Shown here one piece after another: positions 5,119 to 60,561 of a DNA stretch of 60,561 nucleotides (positions are counted from its first letter, which is position 1; each line of letters opens with the position of its first letter). The position numbers and the translations under genes are program-made. This DNA comes from an uncultured virus (IMG/VR IMGVR_UViG_3300043449_002525) (lineage: Duplodnaviria > Heunggongvirae > Uroviricota > Caudoviricetes), in the IMG/VR virus record IMGVR_UViG_3300043449_002525; one strand, written 5' to 3'. Under the pieces are notes generated by a model. The model had not been told where the DNA came from and ran no database searches. It worked only from the letters and a program-made list of their open reading frames with translations.

Positions 5119-6052
5119 TCTCAAGCCTATTACCCTTCCTATGGCAATTCGTTTCGGCGAAGAGCCAACTACAGAGTTCGTCAATAGCCTCGATGCACTC
5201 AAGCTCGAGCTGGTCGATGCACCAGATCCTTACACCATTCGACAGGCTGTCTACTGCTTTGTCAAGTCGACCTGGGCTGACCAGCACGTTCCATTCCGCG
5301 ATGCGACTGATGCTGAGCTCTCGAAGACACTTGAGGATGTCTTCGCAGGTCGAGCTCTTCCGGCAGCAATGGAGCTGATCGGCCTCACCTTCCTCGTGGG
5401 TGGCATTGACACGCAGACGGTAACGCATCTCATCCGCCACCGTGCTGGATCCTTCGCCGCACAGTGCACCGGCGACCGCTGGCTCTCACACGAGCGCAGC
5501 CTTGTTCCTGGTTCCATCCAGAACAGCCCGGAGTTCTATGCCCGCTGGCAGGATCACGTCCAGGAGGCGAAGCAACTCTACACTGACATGGTCGACTCCA
5601 AGAAGATCAGCCTCATGGATGCACGTCACGTCCTTCCTAAGTGCCTCGAGACGTTCTACTACATGCGCATGAACATCCGCGATGCTTTCATGTTCATCAA
5701 GCAGCGCCAGGACAAGCAGATCCAGCCTGAGGAGGACAATATCCTCGCTGCTCTCATGGCCCGCGAGATCATCAAGATCTTCCCCGAGGCACACGTGGCG
5801 ATCAACCTCCGCGAGCCTGCTTGGCACTACATCAAGACGTTCCGGAATGGCACTGGTACCAACCTCTACTGGCCCGATGAGGATAGCGAGAAGCACCTCA
5901 CCTACCACCCGAACGACACGATCTATCAGGCAACTCGTGATGAGATGAATGGAACATCAGGTGGTGTTCCACACTTCCGCAAGGTTTGGAACGAGATCCT
6001 GTCAGAGATTGATATGCTCGTCACCAACTACAAGAACACGCGGGGCATTTAA
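5102..6052 (+). CDS. Divergent ThyX-like flavoprotein (second paralogue)
   Basis: HLIRHRAGSFAAQC (RHR-x7-C instead of RHR-x7-S), DARHVLP, NIRDAFMFIKQR. Confidence 0.75.
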   Translation: MPQDTNLKPITLPMAIRFGEEPTTEFVNSLDALKLELVDAPDPYTIRQAVYCFVKSTWADQHVPFRDATDAELSKTLEDVFAGRALPAAMELIGLTFLVGGIDTQTVTHLIRHRAGSFAAQCTGDRWLSHERSLVPGSIQNSPEFYARWQDHVQEAKQLYTDMVDSKKISLMDARHVLPKCLETFYYMRMNIRDAFMFIKQRQDKQIQPEEDNILAALMAREIIKIFPEAHVAINLREPAWHYIKTFRNGTGTNLYWPDEDSEKHLTYHPNDTIYQATRDEMNGTSGGVPHFRKVWNEILSEIDMLVTNYKNTRGI

Positions 6053-34217: not shown

Positions 34218-34226
34218 TCTCACTCT

Positions 34227-34314: not shown

Positions 34315-35049
34315 ATGAACGACTCACTCGACCAATACTTCAAGCAGATCGCAACTGGTAAGCTTCTCACACACGCAGAGGAGATCGAGCTCTCGCAACG
34401 GATTGAGGCAGGTGACAATGAGGCACGTCGGATCATGATCCAGTCGAACCTTCGTCTGGCGATCTCAATCGCCAAGAAGTACCAGCGGAGCGGCTGCAAC
34501 CTGGAGGATCTCATCCAGGAGTCGAACGTGGGCCTGATCAAGGCAGTAGATCGGTTCGACTGGCGTCGGGGTTTCAAGTTCAGCACCTACGCATCCTGGT
34601 GGATCAAGCAGGCCGTCCGTCGGCACGTGACTGACTCGATGTCTGACGTTCGGATGCCTTCTCACGCCGTGTCGCTGGCCTACAAGATCAGCAATTTCAT
34701 CCGCGACTACGAGAACGAGTTCAACAACAGGCCCACGAACACTGAAATCGCTGAGATGCTGGGTGTCTCTGAGGAGACGGTCAAGGAGTCGCTGTACAAC
34801 ACTGGGCTCACTTCGACGATCTCTCTTGACACTCCCGTAGGTGACGAGTCGGATCGCACACTGATGGAGACGATCGTCGACGACCGCGGGACGCACATCG
34901 ATGAGCTGCTCGATCGAGCTCGTGTCTTTGATGTGGTCAAGCAGTGCATGCATCTTCTCACTCCCCGCGAGGAGCAGGTACTTCGTCTTCGGTTCGGCAT
35001 CACTGATATCTCTGACATCGACGCACTTCCCAACACTCTTCAGGTTTGA
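34315..35049 (+). CDS. Sigma-70 family factor (regions 1.2-4.1), lacking the region 4.2 HTH
   Basis: DSLDQYFKQI, NLRLAISIAKKY, DLIQE, GFKFSTYASWWIKQA, ISLDTP, LTPREEQVLRLRFG, then a stop. Confidence 0.92.
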   Translation: MNDSLDQYFKQIATGKLLTHAEEIELSQRIEAGDNEARRIMIQSNLRLAISIAKKYQRSGCNLEDLIQESNVGLIKAVDRFDWRRGFKFSTYASWWIKQAVRRHVTDSMSDVRMPSHAVSLAYKISNFIRDYENEFNNRPTNTEIAEMLGVSEETVKESLYNTGLTSTISLDTPVGDESDRTLMETIVDDRGTHIDELLDRARVFDVVKQCMHLLTPREEQVLRLRFGITDISDIDALPNTLQV

Positions 35050-40654: not shown

Positions 40655-43600
40655 ATGAAGACGAAAGTTACGTTGTCTGAGCAGGAACTTCGACGCCTAA
40701 TCCGCGCATCTCTGCTCGAGCAAGATGGAGATGCGCCTGCAGAGATTAACATTTTTAGTGTAATCGACGCCGACGCCGTGATAGGCGGCGATGCTGTTGC
40801 AAAAGCTCTGAAAGAGCTAAATGAGCAGTTAGGCGGGCTCGAGGTGGGCGAAGCAAAATACACGGGAAGGCAGTATGCAGACTTTATCTCGAAAGCAGCC
40901 CGCACTTTAGGCGTCGTCTCGGGCGTCGGAGATTGGAATGATAGTGATCCCGCTCAATCCCAGTTTGAGCTCGTCAGTGCATACTACAAGCTTGCGTTGA
41001 TCCTCCTTCTAGAGAGAGAAGATCTCACGGTCGGGCCGCTGGCTGTTGAAGGTTCAAAGAGCCTTGAGTTTGTTCCATACATCAAGGTGGACAGCGACCC
41101 TAGCTTCTACGTCTCTGAGGAAAATGTAGAGAAAGATCCGAAGCTAGTTGATTTAATCAATTTCATTCGGACTGAGCTGTTCAGCGGCGCGCCCCCCGTC
41201 ACCTATAAATCTAAAGAATTCTTTAACAAACTATCAGATCCTACGTTTTTGCAACAAATTAAGGAAGCGAAGTTTTCAACGTCTAAACAGCACCCTGATG
41301 TAGCCTTTAAATCTTTCTTGGGTGATAAACAGGCAGAAATTTTATCGGAGCGGATGGTGGCCAATTTAAATAGCGGCCTTGCTCCCCTCAAGGAGACGTG
41401 GGCAAAGTTGAATACGGGAACGTATGAAAACTTCTTTGCCATCCCAGTCAACATGCCAAATATCTGGTACGCCATCCGGGAACCGGCTAGCCCGCTCTAC
41501 ACTCCCTGGCGTGAAGCCTGGGTTGTGTGTAACATGATCAATAAGGGGCTTGCCCTTCCTCAAGGACCTGCAGCGCTAGCTGCGATGCTCTACAAGACAT
41601 ACAATAGTGGGTTGTCTGCACAGAGCGGTTTTTATCGCCCTGAAGAGGCAGCATCCACAGCACTGAGCACGCAGGCGCTCAACGAGTCAAGGCGCATACT
41701 GGTCACGCACAAAGAGCTCCGCCGCATCATCACTGCTGCGTTACATGAGTATGCTACTCGGCCGCAGCAGGCAATCAGTGAAGGTGCGCTAGATGTGATG
41801 AGCACTGCCTGGAAGGGCTTCAAGGGGATCTTCTCGGGACGTGACGAGGCTAAGGTCGCGATGCAGGGCGCTTATGATCTGTTGAAAGTTACAGGTCAAG
41901 AAAATGCCCTGCAAGTTGCGTTGAAAGCGCTTGATGACGTGGCCAGGACATTTAACCCAGACGACTTGCAAGCAATCAGAGCAATGCTCGATGGGGGAAT
42001 AGCGGCAGGTAAAAAAATCCTCGACGACGCATCAACTTACGCCCCCAATGCACTCACAGAGCCTGGTACCATTGATCAAATCAAAGCTCGCCCGTGCATT
42101 GCTGACCTTGTCGGCCTCGCACCGAATACTGATCCTCGGTCTGCTGAAGTTGCAAGACAGCTCTTGAATGACGGGGCGAGGCTGGCTCTCGCGCAGAGCG
42201 TGGGTGATGTGAATAAAGTTGCAAATATTGCAAAGAAGATGTCTGACCTCTTTATGAAGCTAGACGATACGCAGAAAGGCATTGTGAGAACTCTGATCGG
42301 TCAAGCAACACCCAAGACAGGATTTTTCAAGTTGCCTGCTGAATTTGAGCCATTTGTGGTAAGACGTCTCAGTGATGATATAGATGAAGCCTCTGCGAAG
42401 GCGAAGTGGAAAGAAATTGAGCCTAAAATTGTGGATGGGTTCAATGCGTTGGGGTCGAGTGTTGCAGTTAACTCAGTGCAAATCGCAGGTGAATTTGCAA
42501 AAAATCCACTCATTGCCAAGAGAGCTGCTTCTGAGGGCGCACAAGCTCTTACAGGCAGACGTGTCTTGGATGTTCTCGGTGGTAAATACCGACCTGAACA
42601 GTCGAAACTTGCCGGCAAAATATCACACTTGCTTTACGGCGCTGATCGCTATGTCGTGTCTATGCCGTCAAGACTTGCCGCGAACAAGATGGCTGATCTA
42701 TTCCAGAGTTCACCTCGAATTGCAGGCGCCTTTGAGTGGCTAGCATCGAACAATGTGGTGAGAGCAATCCTTGTTAAACAGCTTGTAGCTCTGGGGCTCG
42801 GGGCTGCGGTTGCGAATGTGGGTGCCACGGGCATCAGCTGGGAGGACAACACAGCGCTATTTCTTGTAGAGCGACTATCTGATAATAATCCACTCTCGGC
42901 ATCGCTTGCTGAAGTGCTCCTTGCAGCAGCAAGCGAAGCTATTCCTGATACTTCACCCGAATTTCTCGATGAAGAATTTACTAACGCGCTAATGCAAGAT
43001 CCACAGGTTATTGCAGACATTCTAGAGGGTGCTGTAGAACATCTTGAGAGTGGAATTAATATAGCACCTGGATCATTCCCAGAGCTGCAAGAGGGCGCAA
43101 AAGCTATCGACGTTGATGCTTTAGGAACGCTTTCATCTCTAACAAAGTACTTCAACTACAGTGGTGAGAGGCGTCGCCAGGCAGCACTTGATGCACTGCA
43201 AAAGGCGGAACAATTAACTAGTGCCGTTGAGGCATCAAAAGCTGTCGACACAACACCTAGCCAGAGATTAGATGCACTTAGCGCTAAGTTGAAGGGTACA
43301 ACAGAAGCAACTAAGCAAAATGTGAAGTTAGCTGTTCAATCTGTTCAAGGATCATACGCTTATAGCGCACCGCCTAATGCAGCTGATCTGACGAAAGATT
43401 ACGTCAAAAATCTACCGCAAAATTCTTTCAGCGGCATAGGATTATTTGCAGCTGCTCGTGGTGCTGATGAGCTCAAGATGCTCAACATCTTATTAGACGA
43501 AGAGCTTACACTTTTACCCGATGCTCAGCTGTTTGCATCAATTGCTGCAGTTGAAGTCGCACAGACAGGTAAAACTACGCCTCCTCCAGCACCCACAGCT

Positions 43601-43720
43601 GATGATATTAAGATGGTGCAAGCACTTAAGCGCTTGAGTGCCGCAATAAGCGATCAAAGCAAACCTAACAGAGTTGAAGATGCATCTGCGCCAGACGACA
43701 CGGCAGCATCTACTCCCTAG
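40655..43720 (+). CDS. Very large hypothetical protein, probable internal virion/ejection protein
   Basis: 1021 aa; two LRR(L/I)I motifs; hydrophobic segment near residue 710. Confidence 0.65.
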   Translation: MKTKVTLSEQELRRLIRASLLEQDGDAPAEINIFSVIDADAVIGGDAVAKALKELNEQLGGLEVGEAKYTGRQYADFISKAARTLGVVSGVGDWNDSDPAQSQFELVSAYYKLALILLLEREDLTVGPLAVEGSKSLEFVPYIKVDSDPSFYVSEENVEKDPKLVDLINFIRTELFSGAPPVTYKSKEFFNKLSDPTFLQQIKEAKFSTSKQHPDVAFKSFLGDKQAEILSERMVANLNSGLAPLKETWAKLNTGTYENFFAIPVNMPNIWYAIREPASPLYTPWREAWVVCNMINKGLALPQGPAALAAMLYKTYNSGLSAQSGFYRPEEAASTALSTQALNESRRILVTHKELRRIITAALHEYATRPQQAISEGALDVMSTAWKGFKGIFSGRDEAKVAMQGAYDLLKVTGQENALQVALKALDDVARTFNPDDLQAIRAMLDGGIAAGKKILDDASTYAPNALTEPGTIDQIKARPCIADLVGLAPNTDPRSAEVARQLLNDGARLALAQSVGDVNKVANIAKKMSDLFMKLDDTQKGIVRTLIGQATPKTGFFKLPAEFEPFVVRRLSDDIDEASAKAKWKEIEPKIVDGFNALGSSVAVNSVQIAGEFAKNPLIAKRAASEGAQALTGRRVLDVLGGKYRPEQSKLAGKISHLLYGADRYVVSMPSRLAANKMADLFQSSPRIAGAFEWLASNNVVRAILVKQLVALGLGAAVANVGATGISWEDNTALFLVERLSDNNPLSASLAEVLLAAASEAIPDTSPEFLDEEFTNALMQDPQVIADILEGAVEHLESGINIAPGSFPELQEGAKAIDVDALGTLSSLTKYFNYSGERRRQAALDALQKAEQLTSAVEASKAVDTTPSQRLDALSAKLKGTTEATKQNVKLAVQSVQGSYAYSAPPNAADLTKDYVKNLPQNSFSGIGLFAAARGADELKMLNILLDEELTLLPDAQLFASIAAVEVAQTGKTTPPPAPTADDIKMVQALKRLSAAISDQSKPNRVEDASAPDDTAASTP

Positions 43721-43989
43721 TGTTGTCCTACCACGTCTACATCATAACCTGCGCTGATGGTTCGCTCTACACCGGCATCACAACCGATGTAGAGCGACGT
43801 CTCCATGAGCACAATTGCACATCCCGAGGTGCAAAATACACTCGATCTCGTCGCCCTGTGACGCTCGCCGCGTCATGGCCTGCAACCGATCGATCGTCTG
43901 CTCTCCGTGAAGAGGCAAGGATCAAGCGCTTGACAAGAAAAGAGAAGCTGCACTTGATAGATACATTTGTCAGAGAGAAGCAGAGTTGA
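43720..43989 (+). CDS. GIY-YIG nuclease (UPF0213/YhbQ-like)
   Basis: VYI..CADGSLYTGIT..RRLHEHN..GAKYTR..E.RIK. Confidence 0.9.
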   Translation: MLSYHVYIITCADGSLYTGITTDVERRLHEHNCTSRGAKYTRSRRPVTLAASWPATDRSSALREEARIKRLTRKEKLHLIDTFVREKQS

Positions 43990-48212: not shown

Positions 48213-48443
48213 GTGACAGGGAAGAAGAAGAGCACAGGTCGACGACGACTTGCTGTGGGAGATCTTGTTGAACACATCAATAAGCAGCATCCAGATCATG
48301 GTAAGATCGGCATGGTTACCCGAGTCACTGACCAGACACAGATGATGAGAATAGCTTTTGTGATGGTTGAGGGCACAGAGCGTGTCTGGTTCATGGGTGA
48401 CTTTGTGAAATTAAAGGGAGTCGAAGATGATGAAGCCGTCTGA
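48213..48443 (+). CDS. Small SH3/KOW-like protein
   Basis: LAVGDLVEH...GKIGMV; leaderless promoter TTGATA-18-TATAGT (48178-48207). Confidence 0.6.
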   Translation: MTGKKKSTGRRRLAVGDLVEHINKQHPDHGKIGMVTRVTDQTQMMRIAFVMVEGTERVWFMGDFVKLKGVEDDEAV

Positions 48444-51215: not shown

Positions 51216-51443
51216 ATGCAGGCGATCAAGAACCGCTACACACCCGGTGATCTGTACGAAGTGATCGACCAGTTCGGATCTTCAAAGGGTCGCTGCATCT
51301 TCGTGGAGCTCATCGAGCCTGGCACACTCGATCTGGTTCAGGTCGTCCGACCGATGCACTGGCACTTTAAAGTTCTACACAAGAGCAAGATCGAGCTCTA
51401 CGACACGTCGCTGTGGTCGCTTATAGAAGTGTATAGCGACTAA
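51216..51443 (+). CDS. Small SH3/KOW-like protein
   Basis: YTPGDLYEV...KVL...LIEV. Confidence 0.6.
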   Translation: MQAIKNRYTPGDLYEVIDQFGSSKGRCIFVELIEPGTLDLVQVVRPMHWHFKVLHKSKIELYDTSLWSLIEVYSD

Positions 51444-51447
51444 TTTG

Positions 51448-52992
51448 TCACTGGTCCTCGAACCACGTGAGAGCGCAGGCGACGACGTCTGCCGCAGTGG
51501 CGTCTCCTGATTGCGCAGTCACCGTCAATGACTCTCCCACCGACAGGAAGAAGTTATCACCCTTCAGGTCAATGTTGATCGAATTTTGGAATGCAATAAC
51601 GTATGTCGCTACCAGTGTGTTCTGGTTCGAAGTGAAACCTGTTGCACCTGTATCGTAAGCCGCTGCGGATTGCACCTCATTCACATAAGTCCAGTTGACT
51701 GGTCCACTCAGCCGCAGGTTCTTGTAGACCTTGATCGTCATGTACTTGGACCCGGCTGATGAGCTGTCCACGACGCTGACTGACAGCGTGCTGAGGTCTA
51801 TCTCAGAGTATCCGGCGTCATTGTTGAAAACTCTGTTAGACCTGACAGATAGTATCGGAAGCTCAGACGCGTTACTTACGATGGTCTTCACCCCGGCAGC
51901 CGAGAATGCGGGACCGATGTTCCTGGCAACCTCGCCCTCACAGAAGATAGCTCCCGATGTCCCGGTCATGTGGGTCCCTATCGTCGACCCCGCATTTGCC
52001 ACCGCCCATATCCCGGAGACATGTGGGTCCTTGAGAACAGGCGTGAGGCGAGCATTCGCGTTCTCAATCATGTGGCATGCCTGGAACTGCCCGGTCTGCG
52101 GGTCCTCGATCGCGAATCGCGCGTTGCCGAATCCGAGGTACTGGAATCCGATCTGGTAGACATTGCCTTTTGCTGTATTGAGGGAGAACCGGCTCGGCCC
52201 ATTACCGTCCATCGTGTCGATGTTCCACGCAGACTGTGTGACGAAGGTCGCGTTTGCAACCGCACCTGCTTTGAACTGCGTGAATGATGTCACACCGAGC
52301 CCTGTGCCCGCCGCGCTGTAGGCCCCCGATCTCGATCCCGTTCGAAGGGCGATGAAGTAGATTATACCATCATACGCCTCCGCGACCCATCCGCCACCGA
52401 CGTTTGACCAGTCCTGCTGTGAGATCTCCCACGACGTCTGGTTGGTGTTTGAACCACCTGAGATCGTGTAGGCCTTCGCTTGACCGTTCAGCGTGATTGT
52501 GACGCTTGTTCCGTTCGCTACTCCTGTCGACAGAACGAGCTTCCACACCTCCCTTTGACCGTCAGGGAAGTGATGGATCCCAAAGCTCGTCCCCTGGTAC
52601 CCAAAGTGATAACCGCACTCGACGTTACCGAACCCCAGCAGCTGGTAGGTGTCCGCGACCGGAGGGCCGAAGATTGCCGTCCCCCTGAAGAGAGAGCCCT
52701 GTCCTGCACGATAGGAGAGGCCTCTCCTCATCTGGACCGAGGCTGACCCCGTGGTCGCAGTTCCTGACTTGACAAAGGCGTTCCCGCCGGAGGCTGTCAC
52801 TGTGGCTCCGTCACCGATCGAGCGGCTCAGGAATGTGGTGGGGTTCAGCCCTTTGACAAATGTAGCCTGGGATGCTGGAGTGAGCTGGGCGACGAGAGAC
52901 TCACCGAACTGCGAGGTCTGCGAGGCGTTCGCGGTGTTAGTTCCGCCTGCTCCTTGACCGCCATTCTTAGCGATAGATGCAAATCCCGACAT
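51448..52992 (-). CDS. Probable virion structural protein (beta-rich, lectin-like); only minus-strand gene
   Basis: Gly/Ser/Thr-rich; FGE, YRAGQG, WNIDTMDG, IGFQYLGFG, W.E C-terminus; SD GGAG. Confidence 0.7.
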   Translation of the reverse strand: MSGFASIAKNGGQGAGGTNTANASQTSQFGESLVAQLTPASQATFVKGLNPTTFLSRSIGDGATVTASGGNAFVKSGTATTGSASVQMRRGLSYRAGQGSLFRGTAIFGPPVADTYQLLGFGNVECGYHFGYQGTSFGIHHFPDGQREVWKLVLSTGVANGTSVTITLNGQAKAYTISGGSNTNQTSWEISQQDWSNVGGGWVAEAYDGIIYFIALRTGSRSGAYSAAGTGLGVTSFTQFKAGAVANATFVTQSAWNIDTMDGNGPSRFSLNTAKGNVYQIGFQYLGFGNARFAIEDPQTGQFQACHMIENANARLTPVLKDPHVSGIWAVANAGSTIGTHMTGTSGAIFCEGEVARNIGPAFSAAGVKTIVSNASELPILSVRSNRVFNNDAGYSEIDLSTLSVSVVDSSSAGSKYMTIKVYKNLRLSGPVNWTYVNEVQSAAAYDTGATGFTSNQNTLVATYVIAFQNSINIDLKGDNFFLSVGESLTVTAQSGDATAADVVACALTWFEDQ

Positions 52993-53035
52993 AAACAAAC
53001 TCCATTTATAAGATAAGTATATCTAAGAGGTACGA
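52993..53035. promoter_or_regulatory. Divergent late-type promoter region
   Basis: GATAAGTA (+, 53012-53019) overlapping TATACTTA (-, 53021-53014). Confidence 0.5.
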
Positions 53036-53434
53036 ATGGGTCTCAGTTATCCTATTATCAACGAAGGCTATGTGCCCGCATACCAAGCGTCAGCAGTACC
53101 CTACATTACCTCCTCGCTGATCTCTGTTGGTCAGGTGCACACTATCACATTCCCACAGGTCACACGCTTTTTTAACGTCCAGAATGTGGGTACAGTGACG
53201 ACAGATGAGGTTGCAGTTGCAGTGACACAAAACGGTCTATCTTCGACGGCAGGCAACTACTTCACGCTAAGTCAGGGTGTCTCATTCAGAGACGAGCTTC
53301 GAACCGTCAAGCTCTTCATCTCGTGTTCATCGGGCACAGATGTTCGATACCAGGTCATTGCAGGCCTGACGAACATTCCCTACAGTCAGTTCCTTCTCAT
53401 AACAGGCTCAAATGGTCACTCAGGGGTTGGCTAA
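53036..53434 (+). CDS. Probable virion structural protein
   Basis: VPAYQASAVPYITSS, FPQVTR, AGLTNI, TGS..SGVG; beta-rich. Confidence 0.65.
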   Translation: MGLSYPIINEGYVPAYQASAVPYITSSLISVGQVHTITFPQVTRFFNVQNVGTVTTDEVAVAVTQNGLSSTAGNYFTLSQGVSFRDELRTVKLFISCSSGTDVRYQVIAGLTNIPYSQFLLITGSNGHSGVG

Positions 53435-53437
53435 GCC

Positions 53438-53466
53438 TTGTAAATAAGGCGCTCCTAGCATATTAT
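53438..53466 (+). promoter_or_regulatory. Sigma70-type promoter
   Basis: TTGTAA-17bp-TATTAT; CTCCT (53452) complementary to SD AGGAG (53473). Confidence 0.65.
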
Positions 53467-53482
53467 TACGCCAGGAGATTAA

Positions 53483-54598
53483 ATGAAGTTCCTTAAGCAT
53501 GGTAATGCCTGGTCACTCACCCCCAACGCTCGGATGGATGTTCGAGACACATTGCCCGCAGGCAACTACACCGTCTGTAAGAACCCACTTACAGGCGAGT
53601 ACTTCCTGGAGGAGAGTGAGCGTTTCACTCTACCCCGAAAGCTCTACGGCAAGACTGAGCGGCACGGTGAGCGCATTCTCAGCTCCTTCAAGGGGCGCCA
53701 GCCCGGATCGCAGGTAGGTGTCTTTCTCAGCGGTACCAAGGGATCCGGTAAGACACTCCTCGCGAAGTATGTCGCGATCCAGTCGGGCCTCCCGGTAATT
53801 ATTGTCAATACACCCTACACGGACGAGCGCTTCATGCGCACCATCCAGGGCATCGAGCAGCCGGCTGTCGTCCTGTTTGATGAGTTCGAGAAGCTCTACA
53901 ACCAGGAAGATCAGGAGTCGATCCTCACCCTGTTCGATGGCGTTTACACGGCACAGAACAAGATCATGATCATCACCTGCAACGACAAGTGGGCAGTCCG
54001 TGAGTTCTTCCACAACCGCCCGTCTCGCCTCCGCTACTCGATCAACTTCGAGGGTCTCACAGCGGAGTTTGTGGAGGAGTACTGTGATGACCAGCTGCAG
54101 GACCGCAAGTACCTAAAGAGCATCCTCACCCTGCTCGGAACCACCGATGAGTTCAACTTCGACATGCTTCAGACACTGGTCGATGAGCTCAACCGTTGGG
54201 GTGGAGACTTCGAGGAGACGCTTGAGATCCTCAACGTGAAGCCTATCACCACCGCCCGGTCCAAGTGGACACTCAGCGTTGCGACACCCGACGAACCCAG
54301 TGCAAAGTGGAAAATCAGCTACGGAGAAACAGTGAGCCGCAGCCCGCTCATGTACATGCAGGTCGGTAAGCATGGCCACGGGTGCCTCGAGGTGGGTGTC
54401 AAGCGGATCGGTGATGACGATGATGACGACCTCGAGGAGATCGATCTTGGACTCCGCAGTGAGCACCTCTACAAGGTCGATCCCACGAGTGGAACGATGG
54501 TCCTCAAGATGTCGCAGCGAGGCCACAACTTCGTGGTCACCATTAAGGAGGAGAAGCTAGGCAATGGATGGAGCTTCTTCGACCGGGATGCATTCTGA
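53483..54598 (+). CDS. AAA+ ATPase
   Basis: Walker A GTKGSGKT, Walker B LFDEFEK, TCN, NRPSR. Confidence 0.88.
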   Translation: MKFLKHGNAWSLTPNARMDVRDTLPAGNYTVCKNPLTGEYFLEESERFTLPRKLYGKTERHGERILSSFKGRQPGSQVGVFLSGTKGSGKTLLAKYVAIQSGLPVIIVNTPYTDERFMRTIQGIEQPAVVLFDEFEKLYNQEDQESILTLFDGVYTAQNKIMIITCNDKWAVREFFHNRPSRLRYSINFEGLTAEFVEEYCDDQLQDRKYLKSILTLLGTTDEFNFDMLQTLVDELNRWGGDFEETLEILNVKPITTARSKWTLSVATPDEPSAKWKISYGETVSRSPLMYMQVGKHGHGCLEVGVKRIGDDDDDDLEEIDLGLRSEHLYKVDPTSGTMVLKMSQRGHNFVVTIKEEKLGNGWSFFDRDAF

Positions 54599-54789
54599 TG
54601 GGCAAGATGGTGACACACGCGATCACCGTCAAAGGGATCGTCTACGGCACGATGCACGTCACATGCTCAGAGGATGAGCACCGTCCTGAGAAGCTGGGTG
54701 ACGAGGTCGAGTGGGATTGGGATAACGTCGAGATGGTCGAAGTCGTCGATAGTGAGATCATTGACGGGTGGGAAGAAGATCCTGAATAG
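54598..54789 (+). CDS. Small acidic hypothetical protein
   Basis: TGATG coupling at 54598. Confidence 0.6.
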   Translation: MGKMVTHAITVKGIVYGTMHVTCSEDEHRPEKLGDEVEWDWDNVEMVEVVDSEIIDGWEEDPE

Positions 54790-54800
54790 GAGAGCCTGAC

Positions 54801-55043
54801 ATGAAGGCAGGCGACATCGTCAAGCTGAACAGCTGGTTTCATCAAACTGTCTCAGTATTCCCAGAGCCCAATCCACAGACAACGATTGGTGACATTGAGT
54901 ATCCAAGAGGGACGATTGCACTAATTCTCGAGGTTCTCGACAGTCACGAAGATGACGGCCCAAGCATGAACACGTACATGCGTGTTCTTGTCGGAGGAAA
55001 GGTGGGTTATGTCCGTGCATATTCCTGTGAGGAGATCAAGTGA
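54801..55043 (+). CDS. Small SH3/KOW-like protein (MKAGDIV)
   Basis: SD AGGAGAG; GDIV...ALILEV...RVLVGGKVGYV. Confidence 0.75.
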   Translation: MKAGDIVKLNSWFHQTVSVFPEPNPQTTIGDIEYPRGTIALILEVLDSHEDDGPSMNTYMRVLVGGKVGYVRAYSCEEIK

Positions 55044-55255
55044 ACGTGGGTGACCTGGTCAAGTTCTGGACACCTGCGGTCCCAAAGGGCCTGCAACACA
55101 ATGGGATCATCATAGGCGTCACTCACGAGAATGTGGGTGGCCTGAAGATGGGTAGCATGTATCATGTTCTCACATCCCGTGGGCACATTGTGACAATGAC
55201 TGTGGGTGGCCTGGAGCTCGTGTCACCCGTGCAAGACGACTCGACTGTGGTATGA
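55040..55255 (+). CDS. Small SH3/KOW-like protein (MNVGDLV)
   Basis: GDLV...GIIIGV...YHVL...LELV. Confidence 0.75.
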   Translation: MNVGDLVKFWTPAVPKGLQHNGIIIGVTHENVGGLKMGSMYHVLTSRGHIVTMTVGGLELVSPVQDDSTVV

Positions 55256-55256
55256 T
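55226..55256 (+). promoter_or_regulatory. CCCGTG-type promoter with extended -10
   Basis: CCCGTGCAA...TGTGG-TATGAT. Confidence 0.65.
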
Positions 55257-55275
55257 GTAGCTGTGAGGAGAGGCA

Positions 55276-55476
55276 ATGAAGCCCGGTGACCTTGTGCAAT
55301 ACACTCTACGACGACGAGGTTCGACTGCGCCCTACCCAATCGGGATCCTGCTTGAGATCCGGCCTAAGTCGCATCCACTCATTCGGGAACGCGAGCACGA
55401 CTACATCGTCCTGATCGGTGGCGAGACACGAACTACGACACGACGATATCTAAAACCGATCGAAGAGGCACAATGA
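55276..55476 (+). CDS. Small SH3/KOW-like protein (MKPGDLV)
   Basis: SD GAGGAGAGG; GDLV...GILLEI...YIVLIGG...LKPI. Confidence 0.75.
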   Translation: MKPGDLVQYTLRRRGSTAPYPIGILLEIRPKSHPLIREREHDYIVLIGGETRTTTRRYLKPIEEAQ

Positions 55477-56147
55477 AGATCTGGCATTTGAGCGACACTC
55501 ACATGAACCACGACCAGCTCGTCATTCCCGATGGTATCGACATGGTGATCCACAGCGGAGACGCCTCGAACTGGCGTGACCCGTACCGTAACGAGTCAGA
55601 ACTTCGTGCCTTCATCGACTGGTTTGCTACCCTGTCGATTCCCCACAAGATCTTCGTCCCAGGCAATCACGACACGTCCCTCGAGAAGGGTCTCATCACC
55701 CGCGATCTGATCGAGCACCGTGGGATCCATCTCCTCATCAGCGAGGAGAAGACGATCGAGGGGCTGCGGATCTGGGGAAGCCCATTCACGCCACGCTACG
55801 GTGACTGGTCATACATGCGGGACCGTGGGACGATCAACCGGCTCTGGGATGAGATTCCGGAAGGCCTCGACATCCTCATCACGCACGGCCCGCCCTACGG
55901 CGTCCTCGACGCAACCTACACCCAACACAACAAGGTGGAGCTCGTGGGTTGCAGTGCGCTTCGGAAGCGTGTCGCCAAGGTCCCACCCCGGTTCATGCTC
56001 TTCGGGCACGTCCACTCAACGGATGACATCCGCAATGCGGGAACCCGAACGGTGAGCGAACTTCCTACGATCTTCAGCAACGGGTCCTGTTGCGACGACG
56101 GTCGAATGGGTGTGGTGACGAGCCACGGGAATGTAATGGAGATCTGA
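55473..56147 (+). CDS. Calcineurin-like metallophosphoesterase (MPPED/239FB-like)
   Basis: SDTH, HSGD, GNHD, THGPP, FGHVH. Confidence 0.9.
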   Translation: MKIWHLSDTHMNHDQLVIPDGIDMVIHSGDASNWRDPYRNESELRAFIDWFATLSIPHKIFVPGNHDTSLEKGLITRDLIEHRGIHLLISEEKTIEGLRIWGSPFTPRYGDWSYMRDRGTINRLWDEIPEGLDILITHGPPYGVLDATYTQHNKVELVGCSALRKRVAKVPPRFMLFGHVHSTDDIRNAGTRTVSELPTIFSNGSCCDDGRMGVVTSHGNVMEI

Positions 56148-56156
56148 GTGGTTAAA

Positions 56157-56188
56157 CCCGTGCAACCCGACTCGCCATAGGGTACAAT
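56157..56188 (+). promoter_or_regulatory. CCCGTG-type promoter heading the small-gene array (leaderless)
   Basis: CCCGTGCAA-17bp-TACAAT; ATG 6 nt downstream. Confidence 0.65.
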
Positions 56189-56194
56189 TCTACC

Positions 56195-56581
56195 ATGGTC
56201 AAGAAAGGCTACACTGCGATTCCCAGGTTCACCCGCGCTATTGCATGGAAGGGCCGACGTTGTAACAAGAACAGGGTGCGCATCTTCCCTGGGACCGCGG
56301 GCATTGTAGTAGGTGTGAGCTACTCTCGGGGTTACAACTGGCCCAGAGCTGACATTGAGGGTGTGATCCACACGCTTCATCCCTGGGACTGGGAATTCAC
56401 GTCTATCCGGGTGGGCGAGCTCCGACGCTGGAAGGACACCTACGCGAAGTATGCGTTACCGTTTCTTGTCACCAGGATTGTGAGTCTCGTGACATGTGAA
56501 TGTCTCGGCGATGGGAATGTGTTTGGAACATCCTGCAAGTTTCTTGAGGACAACTCGGAGGTGATCAGTGAAACCGGGTGA
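56195..56581 (+). CDS. Hypothetical protein, two SH3-like halves; first gene of the array operon
   Basis: Internal IRVGEL; ends EVISETG* at the first junction. Confidence 0.6.
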   Translation: MVKKGYTAIPRFTRAIAWKGRRCNKNRVRIFPGTAGIVVGVSYSRGYNWPRADIEGVIHTLHPWDWEFTSIRVGELRRWKDTYAKYALPFLVTRIVSLVTCECLGDGNVFGTSCKFLEDNSEVISETG

Positions 56582-56786
56582 CCTCGTCAAACTCAGAGAT
56601 TGCATCCGCTACACGGGCATCGACACGGCTGACGGTCGATTCTTCGATGTCCCGGGCGGTGCAGTCGGCGTCTACATGGGAATTGACACAGATCGAGAGT
56701 ACAACATCTATGACCTGGTCCTCACTAAGGGCAGGTTGGTGAAATGCGCCCGGAGCGTCTGGAGTGTCCTCGATGAAACCCGGTGA
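56568..56786 (+). CDS. Array cassette 1, SH3/KOW-like (MKPGDLVKL)
   Basis: GTG start in junction; ends VLDETR*. Confidence 0.75.
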   Translation: MKPGDLVKLRDCIRYTGIDTADGRFFDVPGGAVGVYMGIDTDREYNIYDLVLTKGRLVKCARSVWSVLDETR

Positions 56787-56970
56787 CCTTGCCCGTCTCA
56801 AGGATATCGGCATCCACAGCGGAGAGATTGTGATGATAGTCAAGGTGCATCCCTGGCGTGATACTCCAAATGCCTTCGGTTCGTGGGCGACAGTTGACTT
56901 CATGTTCGACGGTCAAGTCGTTGAAGAATGTGACTCGAGCTTCCTGGAGGTGATCGATGAACCTGGGTGA
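56773..56970 (+). CDS. Array cassette 2 (MKPGDLARL)
   Basis: Ends EVIDEPG*. Confidence 0.75.
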   Translation: MKPGDLARLKDIGIHSGEIVMIVKVHPWRDTPNAFGSWATVDFMFDGQVVEECDSSFLEVIDEPG

Positions 56971-57184
56971 TCTTGTCAAGCTCGATATTCCCGGCCAGCG
57001 TGCTCACGGAAAGATCGGCATGGTCGTGGGCAAGGAGCTAAAAGCCACCTACGATTGGATGCGGGACCACATGGGTCAACCTGTCAAGTCTTTCAGCTAC
57101 GAGGTCATGGTTGGAACCGAAGTCTGGCGAGTGGGTTATAATGAACTCCTAGAGGAAACGGAGTGGGACGATGAAGCGCGGTGA
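56957..57184 (+). CDS. Array cassette 3 (MNLGDLVKL)
   Basis: Ends WDDEAR*. Confidence 0.75.
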   Translation: MNLGDLVKLDIPGQRAHGKIGMVVGKELKATYDWMRDHMGQPVKSFSYEVMVGTEVWRVGYNELLEETEWDDEAR

Positions 57185-57419
57185 TCTCGTTATCCTGACA
57201 AACTGTAACACTAGGTTCGAGGGTTCGTACGGTTACGAATTCGGTTGTAATCCCAAAGGTGACTTAACGCTAAAAGACGAAGTCTGGGTTCCAAACGGAA
57301 CTATCGGAATGTACTGTGAGGATCCCAAGGACGACGGAGGAAAGTTCGGTGTCCTCGTCCACGGCCGCCTCCTCTGGTTCGACCAGATCGATTCGAGGGT
57401 CATCGATGAAACCGGGTGA
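57171..57419 (+). CDS. Array cassette 4 (MKRGDLVIL)
   Basis: Ends RVIDETG*. Confidence 0.75.
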   Translation: MKRGDLVILTNCNTRFEGSYGYEFGCNPKGDLTLKDEVWVPNGTIGMYCEDPKDDGGKFGVLVHGRLLWFDQIDSRVIDETG

Positions 57420-57597
57420 TCTCGTCAGAATTAGAAGCGTTCTCAAGAACTCCTGGCACCTCTACGATAATGTCGGTATACTGGTCGAGATCAAGGAAGA
57501 GGGGCTTCTTGCGAACCCGAACGTCGTCCTCATTCACGGCCAGTTGCTTCAGTTCAATACATACGATCTTGAGCTTGTAAATGATGGTGATCGATGA
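57406..57597 (+). CDS. Array cassette 5 (MKPGDLVRI)
   Basis: Ends LELVNDGDR*. Confidence 0.75.
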   Translation: MKPGDLVRIRSVLKNSWHLYDNVGILVEIKEEGLLANPNVVLIHGQLLQFNTYDLELVNDGDR

Positions 57598-57788
57598 AAC
57601 CCGGTGACATCGTCCGTTTCAAGAGCGGCACGCCCATCTTCAAGCGTCAGGGTGAGACACTCGCGCTCATCACTCGGGTCGTTCCCCTGGATGAAGGAAG
57701 AACAACTTACCTCTTTCTTCTCATGCCTACCGGCGAAGTGAAGGCGAGAAGGATCGAGGATGTCGAGGTGGTCATTGAAGCCGGGTGA
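57594..57788 (+). CDS. Array cassette 6 (MKPGDIVRF)
   Basis: Ends EVVIEAG*. Confidence 0.75.
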   Translation: MKPGDIVRFKSGTPIFKRQGETLALITRVVPLDEGRTTYLFLLMPTGEVKARRIEDVEVVIEAG

Positions 57789-58008
57789 TCTGGTCATCGC
57801 GAAGGCAGCCAAGGCCAAGCGACGGGATCCACCTCCTGCAATCATGCTCTACAACTGGAGGACGAATGTCTACCACCCGTGGAAGAACGGAAATCTGGGA
57901 ATGATCATCGATCTCGACCCGAAGACGGAAGGTGTGATCGTCATGGCTGACGGGAACGTGGGCTGGGTGTCACAGGTGATCATCGAGGTGACTGATGAAA
58001 CCGGGTGA
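57775..58008 (+). CDS. Array cassette 7 (TTG start, MKPGDLVIA)
   Basis: SD GAGGTGG; ends EVTDETG*. Confidence 0.75.
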   Translation: MKPGDLVIAKAAKAKRRDPPPAIMLYNWRTNVYHPWKNGNLGMIIDLDPKTEGVIVMADGNVGWVSQVIIEVTDETG

Positions 58009-58243
58009 TCTTGTCACAATCCGCAGGATGAACCTCTCCAATACAGCTCGCATCGCCTACATCGAAGTCTACGATAGGTACGACCACATCGCAGTCCCCC
58101 ACAAAAAGAAGTGGGAACACGGTGAGATCGGCGTTCTCCTTGAGGGGCGGGACGACAAGCGGGAGATGGTCCAAGTCCTCCACTGCGGTCAGGTAGGGTG
58201 GGTCGACGAAGAGATGCTGCGGGTGATCGATGAAACCGGGTGA
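57995..58243 (+). CDS. Array cassette 8 (MKPGDLVTI)
   Basis: Ends RVIDETG*. Confidence 0.75.
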   Translation: MKPGDLVTIRRMNLSNTARIAYIEVYDRYDHIAVPHKKKWEHGEIGVLLEGRDDKREMVQVLHCGQVGWVDEEMLRVIDETG

Positions 58244-58421
58244 TCTCTGCATGATCGTGCATCCTGCCAGGCGTGAGTGGAGCGACTCTGGCGTCTGCAT
58301 GATCCTCAGGCCCGTCAGTCATGAGGACGGCATCGACATCTACTCACACTGCGACTGGTGGGTCATGTGGGACGGGCGTGAGACGGCCTGGGCAAAGACG
58401 GACCTGGAGCCGATCGAATGA
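58230..58421 (+). CDS. Array cassette 9 (MKPGDLCMI)
   Basis: Ends DLEPIE*. Confidence 0.75.
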   Translation: MKPGDLCMIVHPARREWSDSGVCMILRPVSHEDGIDIYSHCDWWVMWDGRETAWAKTDLEPIE

Positions 58422-58708
58422 ACTTCTTTCACAGGGTCTATCGCTGGCTCTACGTCTTCATCAAAGGTCACCTGCCGCTAGGCACACTCGTCCAGTTCAA
58501 GCCGAGAATCGGATTTGACGGGAAGATCTTCTGGCGGTCCTCAGGCGTCCCGAGGCGCAACTCAATCGGGATGGTGATCGATGGGTGGCGCAAGAACGTG
58601 CATCCGATGCCGCCAGGTGTGATCAACAAGGGAAGCGTCGTGCTCTTCGACGGTGCGCGATACGAGATGTTTCATTGGGAACTTGAGCCCATCGATGAAC
58701 CCGTGTAA
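58418..58708 (+). CDS. SH3/KOW-like protein with N-terminal extension, last gene of the array operon
   Basis: LGTLVQF...IGMVID...VLFDG...ELEPIDE. Confidence 0.65.
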   Translation: MNFFHRVYRWLYVFIKGHLPLGTLVQFKPRIGFDGKIFWRSSGVPRRNSIGMVIDGWRKNVHPMPPGVINKGSVVLFDGARYEMFHWELEPIDEPV

Positions 58709-58731
58709 ATGGGCGCGACCTGTGGTACAAT
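58700..58731 (+). promoter_or_regulatory. CCCGTG-type promoter with extended -10
   Basis: CCCGTGTAA-17bp-TACAAT preceded by TGTGG. Confidence 0.7.
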
Positions 58732-58750
58732 TGTCTCATAAGGAGGCGAC

Positions 58751-59179
58751 CTGGGCACGAACTACTACAGTGTGAAGCGCGGATTCGACTACGAGTCCAT
58801 CGACTCCTTCTGGGATGTCCGGGGCACTGAGGACTGCATCCACATCGGGAAGAGCTCCGGCGGCTGGTGCTTCAGCCTCCACGTTGTGCCCGAGATGGGT
58901 ATCAACACCTACGAGGACTGGGTCCGCATGTTCATCGATCCCGACCGGATCATCATGGATGAGTACGGTGAAGTGGTCCCGTTCACTGCAATGATCTCGA
59001 AGATCACAGCCCGGCGAGGCAACATCAACAAGCCTCCCACCCCCGAGTTCTTGGAGAACAACCACGCTGAACCGGGGCCCAACGGGCTCGTCCGTCACAG
59101 GATCGAGTTCTTTGAGGACGGGGGCTGTGTGGGTCATGGCGAGGGCACGTATGATTACATTTCAGGCGATTTCAGCTGA
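58751..59179 (+). CDS. Phage hypothetical protein (MGTNYY...HIGKSSGGW type), probable CTG start
   Basis: AAGGAGG 4 nt before an in-frame CTG-GGC-ACG-AAC-TAC-TAC. Confidence 0.7.
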   Translation: MGTNYYSVKRGFDYESIDSFWDVRGTEDCIHIGKSSGGWCFSLHVVPEMGINTYEDWVRMFIDPDRIIMDEYGEVVPFTAMISKITARRGNINKPPTPEFLENNHAEPGPNGLVRHRIEFFEDGGCVGHGEGTYDYISGDFS

Positions 59180-59188
59180 GGAGTAGGA

Positions 59189-59422
59189 ATGAAGATCACA
59201 CGAAAGACAAACAAATCTACCACACCGTGGGATTACGTTGGAGTCGGTCAGACATTCGTAGAAAGGCCCGGTGGGACCGTCTTCCTCAAGACCTCCGAGT
59301 TCTTTGAGCAGCAAATGGGCGATCACTACAACTCGGTCAACCTCGAGACGGGTGAGCTTGTGGGCTTCATGACGGATTGTTATGTCCTCATCGTCAAGTC
59401 TGAACTTATGGTCGAGGAGTGA
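59189..59422 (+). CDS. Hypothetical protein
   Basis: SD GAGGAG; 77 aa. Confidence 0.7.
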   Translation: MKITRKTNKSTTPWDYVGVGQTFVERPGGTVFLKTSEFFEQQMGDHYNSVNLETGELVGFMTDCYVLIVKSELMVEE

Positions 59423-59718
59423 ACATGATCGATAATGAATATCCGCTCAATGATCCGCGCTTTGCTCCCCCGCGTGAAGACGACTTCAACGCCCTGGTCG
59501 CTGAGGTGGAGAAGCTGCGCGCCGAGCGTGACCACTTCCGTGAAGCGTGGGCAGCGGCACAGGCGCGGTTGGACTGCGGTGTGGATGCTGCGAACGCTGT
59601 TCGAGAGGATCGTGCCGCTCTCATCCGGTGGCTGGGCCTCCCTCCGCAAACGTACCTCGACGGCTACCTGCTCGTCGGTTCCATCGAACGCGGCGAGCAC
59701 CGCAAGGAGACTAAGTGA
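59419..59718 (+). CDS. Hypothetical protein
   Basis: SD GAGGAG; ALVAEVEKLRAE coiled coil. Confidence 0.65.
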   Translation: MNMIDNEYPLNDPRFAPPREDDFNALVAEVEKLRAERDHFREAWAAAQARLDCGVDAANAVREDRAALIRWLGLPPQTYLDGYLLVGSIERGEHRKETK

Positions 59719-60014
59719 AAATCGAGATTGGCAAGACTGATGTGTCTCCATTCCTCTGGCTCCAGAACGAGGTCGAACGGGTCCTCATCGCCGAGACCCT
59801 ACGTCGAGCAATCGAGAAGGGCGACCTTGAGAAGGGATCAGAGTTTCTATATCGGGAAGCAGTTGATGCGGAATACGGCGGGATCACCGTAACGCATACG
59901 ATAGTGCAGCCAGGAGCTGGTGTATGGCGCTACGATGACGTGAGACACGAGACCTACACGTTGGCGGAAGCCTTGAGACTCTGCATGAATGAGAACATCA
60001 AGGAGAACACATGA
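59715..60014 (+). CDS. Hypothetical protein
   Basis: SD AAGGAG; GTGA coupling. Confidence 0.65.
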   Translation: MKIEIGKTDVSPFLWLQNEVERVLIAETLRRAIEKGDLEKGSEFLYREAVDAEYGGITVTHTIVQPGAGVWRYDDVRHETYTLAEALRLCMNENIKENT

Positions 60015-60223
60015 GAAACTGGGGACAGATCGACCTGAATGACGTTCGTGATGAGGACATCCAGGATCGTGACAAGGCGATCATCGAGCTCTGGGATGTT
60101 CTCGAACGGTATTACACGATGGTGAACGCGACACGATACCCAGGTACCAGAGATGAATCACATCCTGTGCTCGACAAGTATCGTCGGTTTGTAAATGAGA
60201 ATAGAGCCAATTATGGTTTGTAG
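60011..60223 (+). CDS. Hypothetical protein
   Basis: SD AAGGAG; ATGA coupling. Confidence 0.65.
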   Translation: MRNWGQIDLNDVRDEDIQDRDKAIIELWDVLERYYTMVNATRYPGTRDESHPVLDKYRRFVNENRANYGL

Positions 60224-60235
60224 GAAGGAGAACCC

Positions 60236-60561
60236 ATGAGCCAGGACATTGAGATCGATCCCGATTCCCGGACAATCAAGTATTATGATAATCGGACCGA
60301 GCAGTCTATTCGAGAACATGTCGATTCCGGCGGACGAGTGCTCAGCTGTGAGCAGGTGCGTGTTCTCCTTTATGAGATCGATCGTCTTCGAATGCTTGTC
60401 CCACCTGAGTCCGAGCGTGGTCCCGGTGTCATTGGACAGGGGAGTTGGTCAGTCTTTGCGGAGAAGGTGGTGGAGGAGCGCGATGCTGCCCGAGAGGGTA
60501 TGAAGCAACTTCTCGCGGAGAAGATTGAACTTAGGGATGAACTGAATGGTCTATGTGAGGA
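60236..60561 (+). CDS. Hypothetical protein, 3'-truncated by window (MSQDIEIDPDSRT...)
   Basis: SD AAGGAG; frame open to the window end. Confidence 0.65.
   Translation, partial: MSQDIEIDPDSRTIKYYDNRTEQSIREHVDSGGRVLSCEQVRVLLYEIDRLRMLVPPESERGPGVIGQGSWSVFAEKVVEERDAAREGMKQLLAEKIELRDELNGLCE

Follow-up and report, generated by a model that had tools for sequence, protein, structure and literature searches.

The turnover of small genes of unknown function, which account for much of the "dark matter" of phage genomes, is poorly documented outside T4-type phages. In the hyperplastic regions of those phages, genes are shuffled by way of the promoter-early stem-loop (PeSL), which the excerpts used here of two papers (Arbiol et al. 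2010, PMC2839356; Comeau et al. 2014, PMC4122927) describe as an intergenic promoter and terminator with about 100 bp of conserved sequence, flanking unrelated ORFans, and for which mini-circles have been demonstrated. Translational coupling of an overlapping gene pair, trx-cve of cyanophage Syn5, has been shown experimentally, according to an excerpt of the report (bioRxiv 10.1101/2025.10.05.680603). Here, we analyzed a stretch of 60,561 nt from an uncultured phage (IMG/VR record IMGVR_UViG_3300043449_002525), referred to below as the window, from a genome that probably measures ~266 kb. It contains a chain of small genes (cassettes) joined by a short junction that is read in two frames. We consider it probable that this chain is a passive, homology-driven cassette array, that is, an operon-like series of diverged paralogs of one small cytoplasmic SH3-like barrel, whose members are exchanged at the junction.

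A chain of small genes is joined by a two-frame junction

As the first-pass annotation had read from the letters of this DNA, nine successive open reading frames (ORFs) of 63-82 aa occupy positions 56568-58421, each beginning M-K/N-x-G-D-L/I. Their starts lie at 56568 (GTG), 56773, 56957, 57171, 57406, 57594, 57775 (TTG), 57995, and 58230. Eight of the nine precede the stop of the ORF in front of them by 14 nt, in a ATGAAACCGGGTGA-like overlap. The exception is 57594, with a 4-nt ATGA overlap, and the junction that leads from the gene at 58230 to the one at 58418 is likewise ATGA. The two-frame junction itself, also proposed in that annotation, proved far from a chance resemblance: with at most 1 mismatch, the 14-mer ATGAAACCNGGTGA occurs 7 times in the window, always at a family start, where 0.08 occurrences are expected, and none of 100 shuffles reached 7. 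A repeat search returned a 43-nt unit in 9 copies, spaced 181-235 nt apart.

The junction consensus is GGAGGTGATCG-ATG-AAA-CCG-GGT-GAT-CTC, whose first ten letters are perfectly complementary to the 3' terminus of bacterial 16S rRNA. The final codons of the upstream gene contain a GGAGGTGATC-like ribosome-binding site, spaced from the ATG as for initiation. Read in the frame of that gene, the junction gives E-V-I-D-E-T-G-stop: the tail is formed by the start codon of the next gene together with its codons 2-4 (K-P-G), and the TGA comes from the invariant Gly4-Asp5 codons (GGT GAY) of that next gene. Two finer details of the earlier description, a GAGGTG read as E-V by the upstream gene and a doubled GGTGATC, hold for part of the array: GAG-GTG stands ahead of the start at four junctions, two of which contain GGTGATC twice. 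The upstream tails (ETG, ETR, EAG, EAR, and EPG) track synonymous changes in the K and P codons of the downstream gene, and because they vary in this way, the upstream tail is passive. Across all loci, 119 of the 179 unique abutting contexts carry the 14-nt overlap. The arrangement, an overlapping stop and start with the ribosome-binding site upstream, is that of translational coupling, and the junction would serve such coupling from a single promoter at 56159-56188.

The same geometry could be read in another way. Each gene is in the +1 frame relative to its predecessor, and if ribosomes were programmed to shift by +1 at each junction, from GGG-TGA to GGT-GAY, ...ETG would be joined to D-L-V and the chain read as an SH3-like polyprotein; in line with this, one relative (locus L015) carries an in-frame fusion of a cassette to the ORF that heads the chain, of 202 aa. 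We consider this exceedingly improbable. The first codon is ATG in 68, GTG in 17, and TTG in 3 of 89 members, the remaining one being mis-called, with a ribosome-binding site at initiation spacing, which argues for independent initiation. Furthermore, 35 of the 179 junctions have the 4-nt form, at which a shift of this kind would not be possible. A search for longer fused relatives gave none, which is weak evidence; the one long profile match considered as a fused relative, P0071, turned out to be an unrelated repeat protein.

Relatives exchange whole genes in the junction core

Of the relatives, G001 is the nearest, with 93-98% identity across most of the window, and was used as the main comparison. 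More relatives were fetched by the DNA pattern of the junction, as the alignment of the family contains no conserved stretch on which a profile could search for loci. With the phosphoesterase gene next to the chain as an anchor, 80 metagenome loci were fetched, which together with the earlier loci gave 387 family members (66 multi-member types and 54 singletons). One locus (L047) is the same DNA as G001 and was left out of the independent count. The features of the region are as follows:

54801-55043, + strand: gene A, 80 aa, starting MKAGDIV; G001 ortholog 97% identical in nucleotides, with zero nonsynonymous changes
55040-55255, + strand: gene B, 71 aa, GTG start; its tail ...SPVQDDSTVV encodes the -35 part of the next feature
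55227-55256, + strand: promoter-like motif CCGTGCAA-N16-TATGAT, within the end of gene B and upstream of gene C
55276-55476, + strand: gene C, 66 aa, with an ATGA overlap with the phosphoesterase gene
55473-56147, + strand: metallophosphoesterase, context gene (Pfam Metallophos, E = 1.1e-11; phrog_1649)
56148-56180, + strand: apparent 10-codon cassette remnant (start, K-P, PVQPDSP-stop); in L042, L044, and L111, a 59-aa cassette ending ...PVQPD(P/S)(S/P) stands here
56159-56188, + strand: promoter-like motif CGTGCAA-N17-TACAAT, heading the putative operon; kept in G001 and L022
56195-56581, + strand: head ORF D, 128 aa, whose C-terminus ...EVISETG lies in the first 14-nt junction; not clearly one of the family
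56568-56786, + strand: cassette E, 72 aa, GTG start; missing from L022, and with a mosaic boundary inside, near 56700, relative to G001
56773-56970, + strand: cassette F, 65 aa, found by the family profile
56957-57184, + strand: cassette G, 75 aa, starting MNLGDLV, found by the family profile
57171-57419, + strand: cassette H, 82 aa; in L022, cut to a 28-codon remnant by an inserted gene
57406-57597, + strand: cassette I, 63 aa; in no close relative examined, with an unrelated cassette in its place in G001
57594-57788, + strand: cassette J, 64 aa, found by the family profile
57775-58008, + strand: cassette K, 77 aa from TTG; the L014 ortholog has GTG at the same place
57995-58243, + strand: cassette L, 82 aa, the member chosen for the structure model
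58230-58421, + strand: cassette M, 63 aa, found by the family profile
58418-58708, + strand: last gene N, 96 aa, an N-terminal extension followed by the family domain
58701-58731, + strand: promoter-like motif CCGTGTAA-N17-TACAAT, closing the putative operon and heading the next gene; kept in G001 and L014
48255-48443, + strand: stray family member outside the arrays (profile E ~1e-5), grouping with its G001 ortholog

The family thus extends beyond the nine genes first noticed. The members at 54801, 55040, and 55276, the divergent one at 58418-58708, and the stray one at 48255-48443 had been missed, as had the ending of the head ORF in a junction. In total, the family profile finds 14 members in the window and 16 in G001. 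A comparison of head ORF D with the family by hhalign covered its last 32 residues only (probability 31%), and its AlphaFold2 model is poor, with a predicted local distance difference test score (pLDDT) of 57. Homologs of cassette I are distant ones only, in L032 and L098. The regular expression for the N-terminus also matched a minus-strand ORF at 34223, which we took as chance.

Array content varies between relatives. Of 23 loci with a phosphoesterase at least 90% identical to that of the window, 13 hold at least 3 array genes, in 10 architectures. Many relative loci stop at contig ends; four complete arrays contain 11, 14, 17, and 20 genes. The gene following the head ORF has six states among close relatives, and cassette H has 8 different right neighbours. 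Compared with the window, G001 carries two additional cassettes behind the head ORF, another between F and G, and an unrelated one in place of I, and all of these differences (a two-cassette indel, a one-cassette indel, and a replacement) switch partner inside ATGAAACCNGGTGA. L022 is without cassette E, cut exactly at the junction. Taken together, the crossovers of all five mapped family-to-family events lie in the junction core and leave no scar. In L022, H and I have also given way to a 334-aa gene, which comes with a promoter motif copy of its own and is inserted 27 nt into H.

These observations are probably explained by ordinary homologous or microhomology recombination, for which the 13-22 nt recurring at every boundary would serve as substrate. 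Recombination within a genome or between co-infecting relatives would then delete, insert, or replace whole genes, and exchange at the junction would leave start, stop, and ribosome-binding site intact. Whole genes could be exchanged without broken signals because the same 13-22 nt recur at each boundary. The cassette behaviour would be a by-product of a repeated translational junction rather than a dedicated recombination system, and the junction in turn the ordinary outcome of start, stop, ribosome-binding, and N-terminal constraints.

Alternatively, breaks may occur anywhere by illegitimate recombination, with selection retaining the products in which genes are intact, so that the junction is of no help. 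This is an unlikely account, albeit one that several observations favour: nearby genes from outside the family likewise come and go at gene boundaries, the identical tracts measure at most 22 nt, and synonymous sites of the junction drift freely. Against it, five of five mapped events cross within the shared letters of the junction core, and scarlessly, and 154 of the 179 abutting contexts keep one of two exact overlap forms. The sole insertion of a foreign gene, by comparison, left a truncated cassette, and the non-family indels also occurred at short direct repeats, pointing to homology-guided events in general.

Several points weigh against homology-driven exchange at the junction as we have set it out, or limit its reach. 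Order among close relatives is mostly collinear, and reordering was seen only in the more distant L015 (M before F) and in two contig back-joints. The first-pass annotation had expected breakpoints to fall at junctions, which was borne out by the five gene-level differences but not by the mosaic boundary inside cassette E. Contig joints from four runs largely agree with the former, as among the 15 joints listed, 12 lie in the cassette region and 21 of their 24 ends fall within 22 nt of a family start (~3 expected, such windows making up ~13% of the stretch), although most are of the class "between: not known" at an 85% likeness threshold, with several relatives per run and other organisms as a possible source. 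The other 3 ends fall at the end of the phosphoesterase gene, beside an internal junction-like sequence in gene N, and in N's junction-like tail. Exact identity between pairs of junctions reaches 22 nt at most, and for most pairs no more than 13 nt, and synonymous sites of the junction are not slowed among orthologs. Finally, the readings of coupling, promoter activity, and protein function derive from sequence.

Turnover is also not restricted to the chain. Between 51.4 and 60.5 kb, the window shows nine breakpoints relative to G001, while positions 1-51.4 kb are collinear but for three diverged segments; the 9-kb stretch is thus a hyperplastic, accessory region. Within it, non-family indels use other short repeats. 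A 552-bp insert in G001, encoding a 154-aa ORF (window 54757-54776; L011 7485-8100), lies between imperfect 20-nt direct repeats that encode the same IIDGWEE tail in both neighbours, and a 203-bp insert lies at a GAGGAG microhomology. With 3-4 events in 2.5 kb of chain versus 5-6 in 6.6 kb of neighbouring sequence, the rate in the chain is not clearly higher than that of neighbours using other repeats, so that turnover does not require the junction. Given these indels, the identity of at most 22 nt, and the mosaic in E, short-homology recombination appears to be general in this phage, with the family junction as its most repeated substrate.

Two other differences from G001 involve larger segments of the same region. 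A 2-kb segment at 51412-53482 corresponds to 66 bp in G001; in it lie a 132-aa ORF and a 516-aa gene (51448-52998; phrog_1645 "virion structural protein", E = 4.5e-27), the latter being the only gene of notable size on the minus strand. Between the phosphoesterase and the head ORF, G001 carries an insert of 2.4 kb (L011 9486-11878) encoding a Laminin_G_3 protein, a family-less 232-aa ORF, and a D12-class adenine methyltransferase, which may constitute a restriction-modification-like module.

The junction is probably not a protected DNA site

A further possibility is that the array is a selected, dedicated cassette system, in which the junction is kept at the DNA level to promote exchange and the array serves as an evolvable repertoire of binders. 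The cassette pool is indeed very large and diverse, and codons at the start are skewed beyond amino-acid need: with one gene taken per cassette type, codon K2 is AAA in 33 of 57 (14% genome-wide), codon G4 is GGT in 19 of 27 cases where no overlapping stop requires it (35% genome-wide), and codon D5 is GAT in 45 of 60 (45% genome-wide). A-rich second codons and the base after the stop provide translational explanations for skews of this kind; a control for AAA as second codon in non-family genes (1 AAA versus 4 AAG) was too small a set. The skew is weak, and probably a translational preference rather than the mark of a protected DNA site.

Orthologs provide the more direct comparison. The third positions of junction codons 2-7 differ in 14.6% of cases, versus 15.3% in cassette interiors (320 orthologous pairs, p = 0.46), against the earlier expectation that synonymous sites there would be more conserved than the proteins require. 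In addition, no recombinase and no structured site were seen in the Pfam scan of the window or in the repeat and fold scans, and the chain does not turn over clearly faster than its neighbours. We therefore regard a dedicated system as improbable. RNA folding at the junctions revealed no significant structure (z -1.35 to +0.79); pairing at the ribosome-binding site was slightly raised (0.62 versus 0.51, p = 0.008), at an energy equal to that of shuffles. At the boundaries, no attC-like inverted repeats were present, all 7 inverted pairs in 56100-58800 having arms at least 356 nt apart, and Rfam gave no match at E ≤ 0.1 in 53000-60561.

The idea of cassettes put forward in the first-pass annotation can therefore be divided. 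Its content-variable array, its crossovers in the junction core, and its freedom from an integrase have held, the last in that ~80 ORFs of the window scanned against Pfam include no integrase or recombinase. The view of the junction as a special DNA device is not supported, as its synonymous sites drift like interiors, exact identity is at most 22 nt, and neighbouring genes swap at other repeats.

A wider reading is that junction and scaffold form a shared library at the level of the population, with exchangeable binder genes, hundreds in number, moving by way of the junction between co-infecting phages, even those of unrelated backbones. We hold this to be rather doubtful. If true, the set of small effectors, directed against host defences or serving takeover, would differ from phage to phage, and the AAA/GGT/GAT skew would be a trace of selection or gene conversion that keeps cassettes exchangeable.

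As a separate observation, the tetranucleotide GATC occurs 640 times in the window, versus ~232 expected from base composition, and 30 times inside the chain, versus ~10 expected, with two GATC per full junction.

The cassettes encode a nameless family with a predicted SH3-like fold

The cassettes are real genes under purifying selection, as the pooled ratio of nonsynonymous to synonymous polymorphism (pN/pS) is 0.19 over 11 cassette pairs of the window and G001. Orthologous cassettes are 84-99% identical, so that the description of these genes as hypervariable does not apply in a mutational sense. These values also rule out targeted hypermutation of the type carried out by diversity-generating retroelements, and no reverse transcriptase was present among the window ORFs scanned against Pfam. 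Paralogs, on the other hand, are 15-42% identical at the protein level. Their interiors are alike only in a protein-level pattern, as had been anticipated; although paralogs are 15-33% identical to the first sequence, the profile finds all of them. This divergence speaks against recent tandem amplification (a genomic accordion), as does that of duplicated types in relatives: the apparent duplicates of J (in L042) and of H (in L111), with DNA identities of 75% and 65%, are old alleles.

An AlphaFold2 model of cassette L, based on a 31-sequence alignment, is all-beta (pLDDT 84.3; predicted template modelling score 0.74). Its best Foldseek matches are SH3 domains at E 0.037-0.1, with none at E ≤ 0.001. 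A second structure search (VIA) matched the SH3b domain of a phage endolysin (Z 8.4), NlpC1 (NlpC/P60; 7.8), and LytB (7.6), as well as the KOW domain of NusG (Z 6.0, root-mean-square deviation 1.6 over 50 residues); Z values of this range are middling, and those of 8 or less may mean merely a common arrangement. In addition, the G-D-x-V start and a G-x-I-G strand of the family recall KOW motifs. The SH3/KOW-like barrel suggested from the sequence pattern is thus supported at the level of the fold, the model pointing to a small SH3-like beta-barrel of five to six strands.

Database searches did not provide the family with a name. None of 13 cassettes reached a Pfam cut-off (the best was SH3_2, with 14.8 bits versus 21.8 needed), PHROG gave no family match at E ≤ 0.001, and NCBIfam contained no family common to the cassettes. 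A profile search against 1.84 billion representatives yielded 720 clusters at E ≤ 0.001, nearly all of 55-100 aa, and the only name carried by these was "hypothetical protein". In the ESM Atlas, scores of at least 0.9 were obtained only for nameless viral clusters, while named cyanobacterial SH3-like families scored 0.85-0.87, which serves as a lead only. Probably, these proteins are dispensable and serve to bind host partners, yet any such role, in takeover or counter-defence for example, is a guess that draws on their small size and fold and on the turnover and accessory location of their genes.

Promoter-like motifs flank the chain

The window contains a bipartite motif, CGTGYR-N16-18-TANAAT, at 6 places (14419, 34261, 47411, 51047, 56159, and 58702), always on the + strand, where 0.16 occurrences are expected, and a stricter form occurs at 55227, 56158, and 58701 (3 versus 0.01 expected). 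Only the bipartite form exceeds chance, as GGTACAATT alone was found 9 times versus 5.4 and CCGTGCAA alone 52 times versus 49. The promoter that had been placed at 56157-56188 coincides with this recurring motif, which is conserved there in two relatives, while a scan with the sigma-70 consensus missed it and gave no excess over shuffles in the window. The -10 part of the head motif ends 6 nt ahead of the ATG of the head ORF, with no ribosome-binding site between them and the same spacing in G001 and L022, which suggests that the head ORF is a leaderless first gene.

Within the chain, such motifs are found at its ends only. Since promoter-like motifs flank it, the chain at 56195-58708 looks like a single transcription unit. 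Scanning placed no terminator-like or promoter-like site at the junctions; the in-chain sites of the same scan lie within cassette bodies, at 57282-57296 (-) and 57502-57518 (-), with a promoter-like site at 57453-57482, and neither class was above shuffles.

The -35 part CCCGTGCAA encodes P-V-Q in the tails of cassettes that precede a promoter (55227-55255 and 58701-58708, and in L014, L015, L042, L070, and others). PVQ or PV-stop ends are present in 31 of 387 family members, 28 of which have the full motif, and this tail appears to be a second kind of dual-coded gene boundary. Gene N follows this pattern, as its IDEPV-stop tail is a junction-like sequence fused to the -35 of the next promoter (repeat copy 58682-58706); in L015, a further cassette stands where the window has this tail. 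Deletion from start to tail, by way of the AACCCG that the junction and the -35 have in common, seems to have produced both the remnant at 56148-56180 and this tail of N.

As a -35, CCCGTGCAA is unusual, and the phage's own sigma-70 family factor (34315-35049) might read it. A 135-aa gene with its start region at 58751-58772 may have a CTG start or start at a GTG further downstream, at 58772; where the window and G001 have this CTG, the L014 and L015 orthologs have the ATG from which their proteins begin, as MGTNYYS.

A large, uncultured freshwater phage

The phage is a large, uncultured freshwater phage with a DnaE-type polymerase. For the latter, the GenBank phage collection yielded relatives among cultured phages only at identities below 30%, and in it we also found no DNA match to 54700-59200 and no protein match to cassette M, cassette I, or the 1021-aa ORF at 40655-43720. 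Near-identical pieces of the window occur in contigs of four runs, from freshwater, drinking-water, and subsurface metagenomes. When genome contigs were searched with the junction pattern, 36 stretches from unrelated taxa were obtained, nearly all as single matches, with two in one contig of a metagenome-assembled genome; we take these to be mostly chance, and they provide no pointer to a host.

Nearly all genes of the window, which has a G+C content of 53%, lie on the + strand. Besides the polymerase, a Pfam scan identified a GroEL-type chaperonin, Hsp20, ClpP, two ThyX homologs (1669-2337 and 5102-6052), a sigma-70 family factor, and GreA. An ORF at 4168-5118 fuses a dUTPase-like domain to a 5'-nucleotidase. 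With a SpoU methylase, a superoxide-dismutase domain, Hsp20, and a host-like GreA, the set is unusually cell-like for a phage. The 1021-aa ORF is without a Pfam or PHROG match, and 40687-43729 could not be aligned with G001 despite flanks that are 95-98% identical; it would be a replaced or very fast-evolving large gene.

Comparison with known systems

A single fold and a single junction, followed through dozens of relatives, make the array an unusually clear case of how short translational repeats would allow genes to be swapped without breaking expression. The family comprises ~720 clusters in abundant freshwater phages, nameless in the libraries searched, and we found no paper describing either the proteins or the junction. 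Should its members be host-interaction or counter-defence effectors, the arrays would form a catalogue of natural binders on one scaffold.

Single aspects of the array recall several described systems. Like integron cassettes, these are mostly promoterless small genes behind one promoter, with a content that varies between relatives. Unlike in integrons, no integrase was found in the window (~60 kb of ~266 kb), there are no attC-like repeats, and the cassettes are overlapping paralogs; on the absence of the former two, we excluded an integron. The predicted fold resembles the SH3b domains of phage endolysin, NlpC/P60, and LytB proteins and the KOW domain of NusG. In contrast to those, which are domains of larger enzymes, the cassettes encode stand-alone proteins of 60-96 aa that reach no Pfam cut-off. 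As in ATGA-type coupled genes such as the Syn5 pair, the stop overlaps the next start and the ribosome-binding site lies in the upstream gene. Going by the excerpt of that report, however, the present overlap differs in that it spans 14 nt rather than 1-4 nt, recurs in up to ~20 consecutive copies, and is common to hundreds of cassette types, with coupling inferred here.

The nearest described system appears to be PeSL-mediated shuffling in T4-type phages, as far as the excerpts of its two reports go. The phage described here is not T4-like, having a DnaE-type polymerase, and whereas mini-circles are on record for the PeSL, the array is known from assembled contigs alone. Its motif is not a promoter plus terminator stem-loop, but 14-27 nt of coding sequence read in two frames, which contains ribosome-binding site, start, and stop without promoter or terminator, and the genes it flanks are all paralogs of one fold. 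In both systems, a short conserved motif lies at the borders of small, non-essential genes in a hyperplastic region; here, the 9 copies of the 43-nt unit flank variable genes, and indels between relatives are bounded by the motif. Close relatives likewise differ in which flanked genes have been inserted, deleted, or replaced, and in the array as with the PeSL, exchange at the motif would spare the expression signals without a dedicated recombinase.

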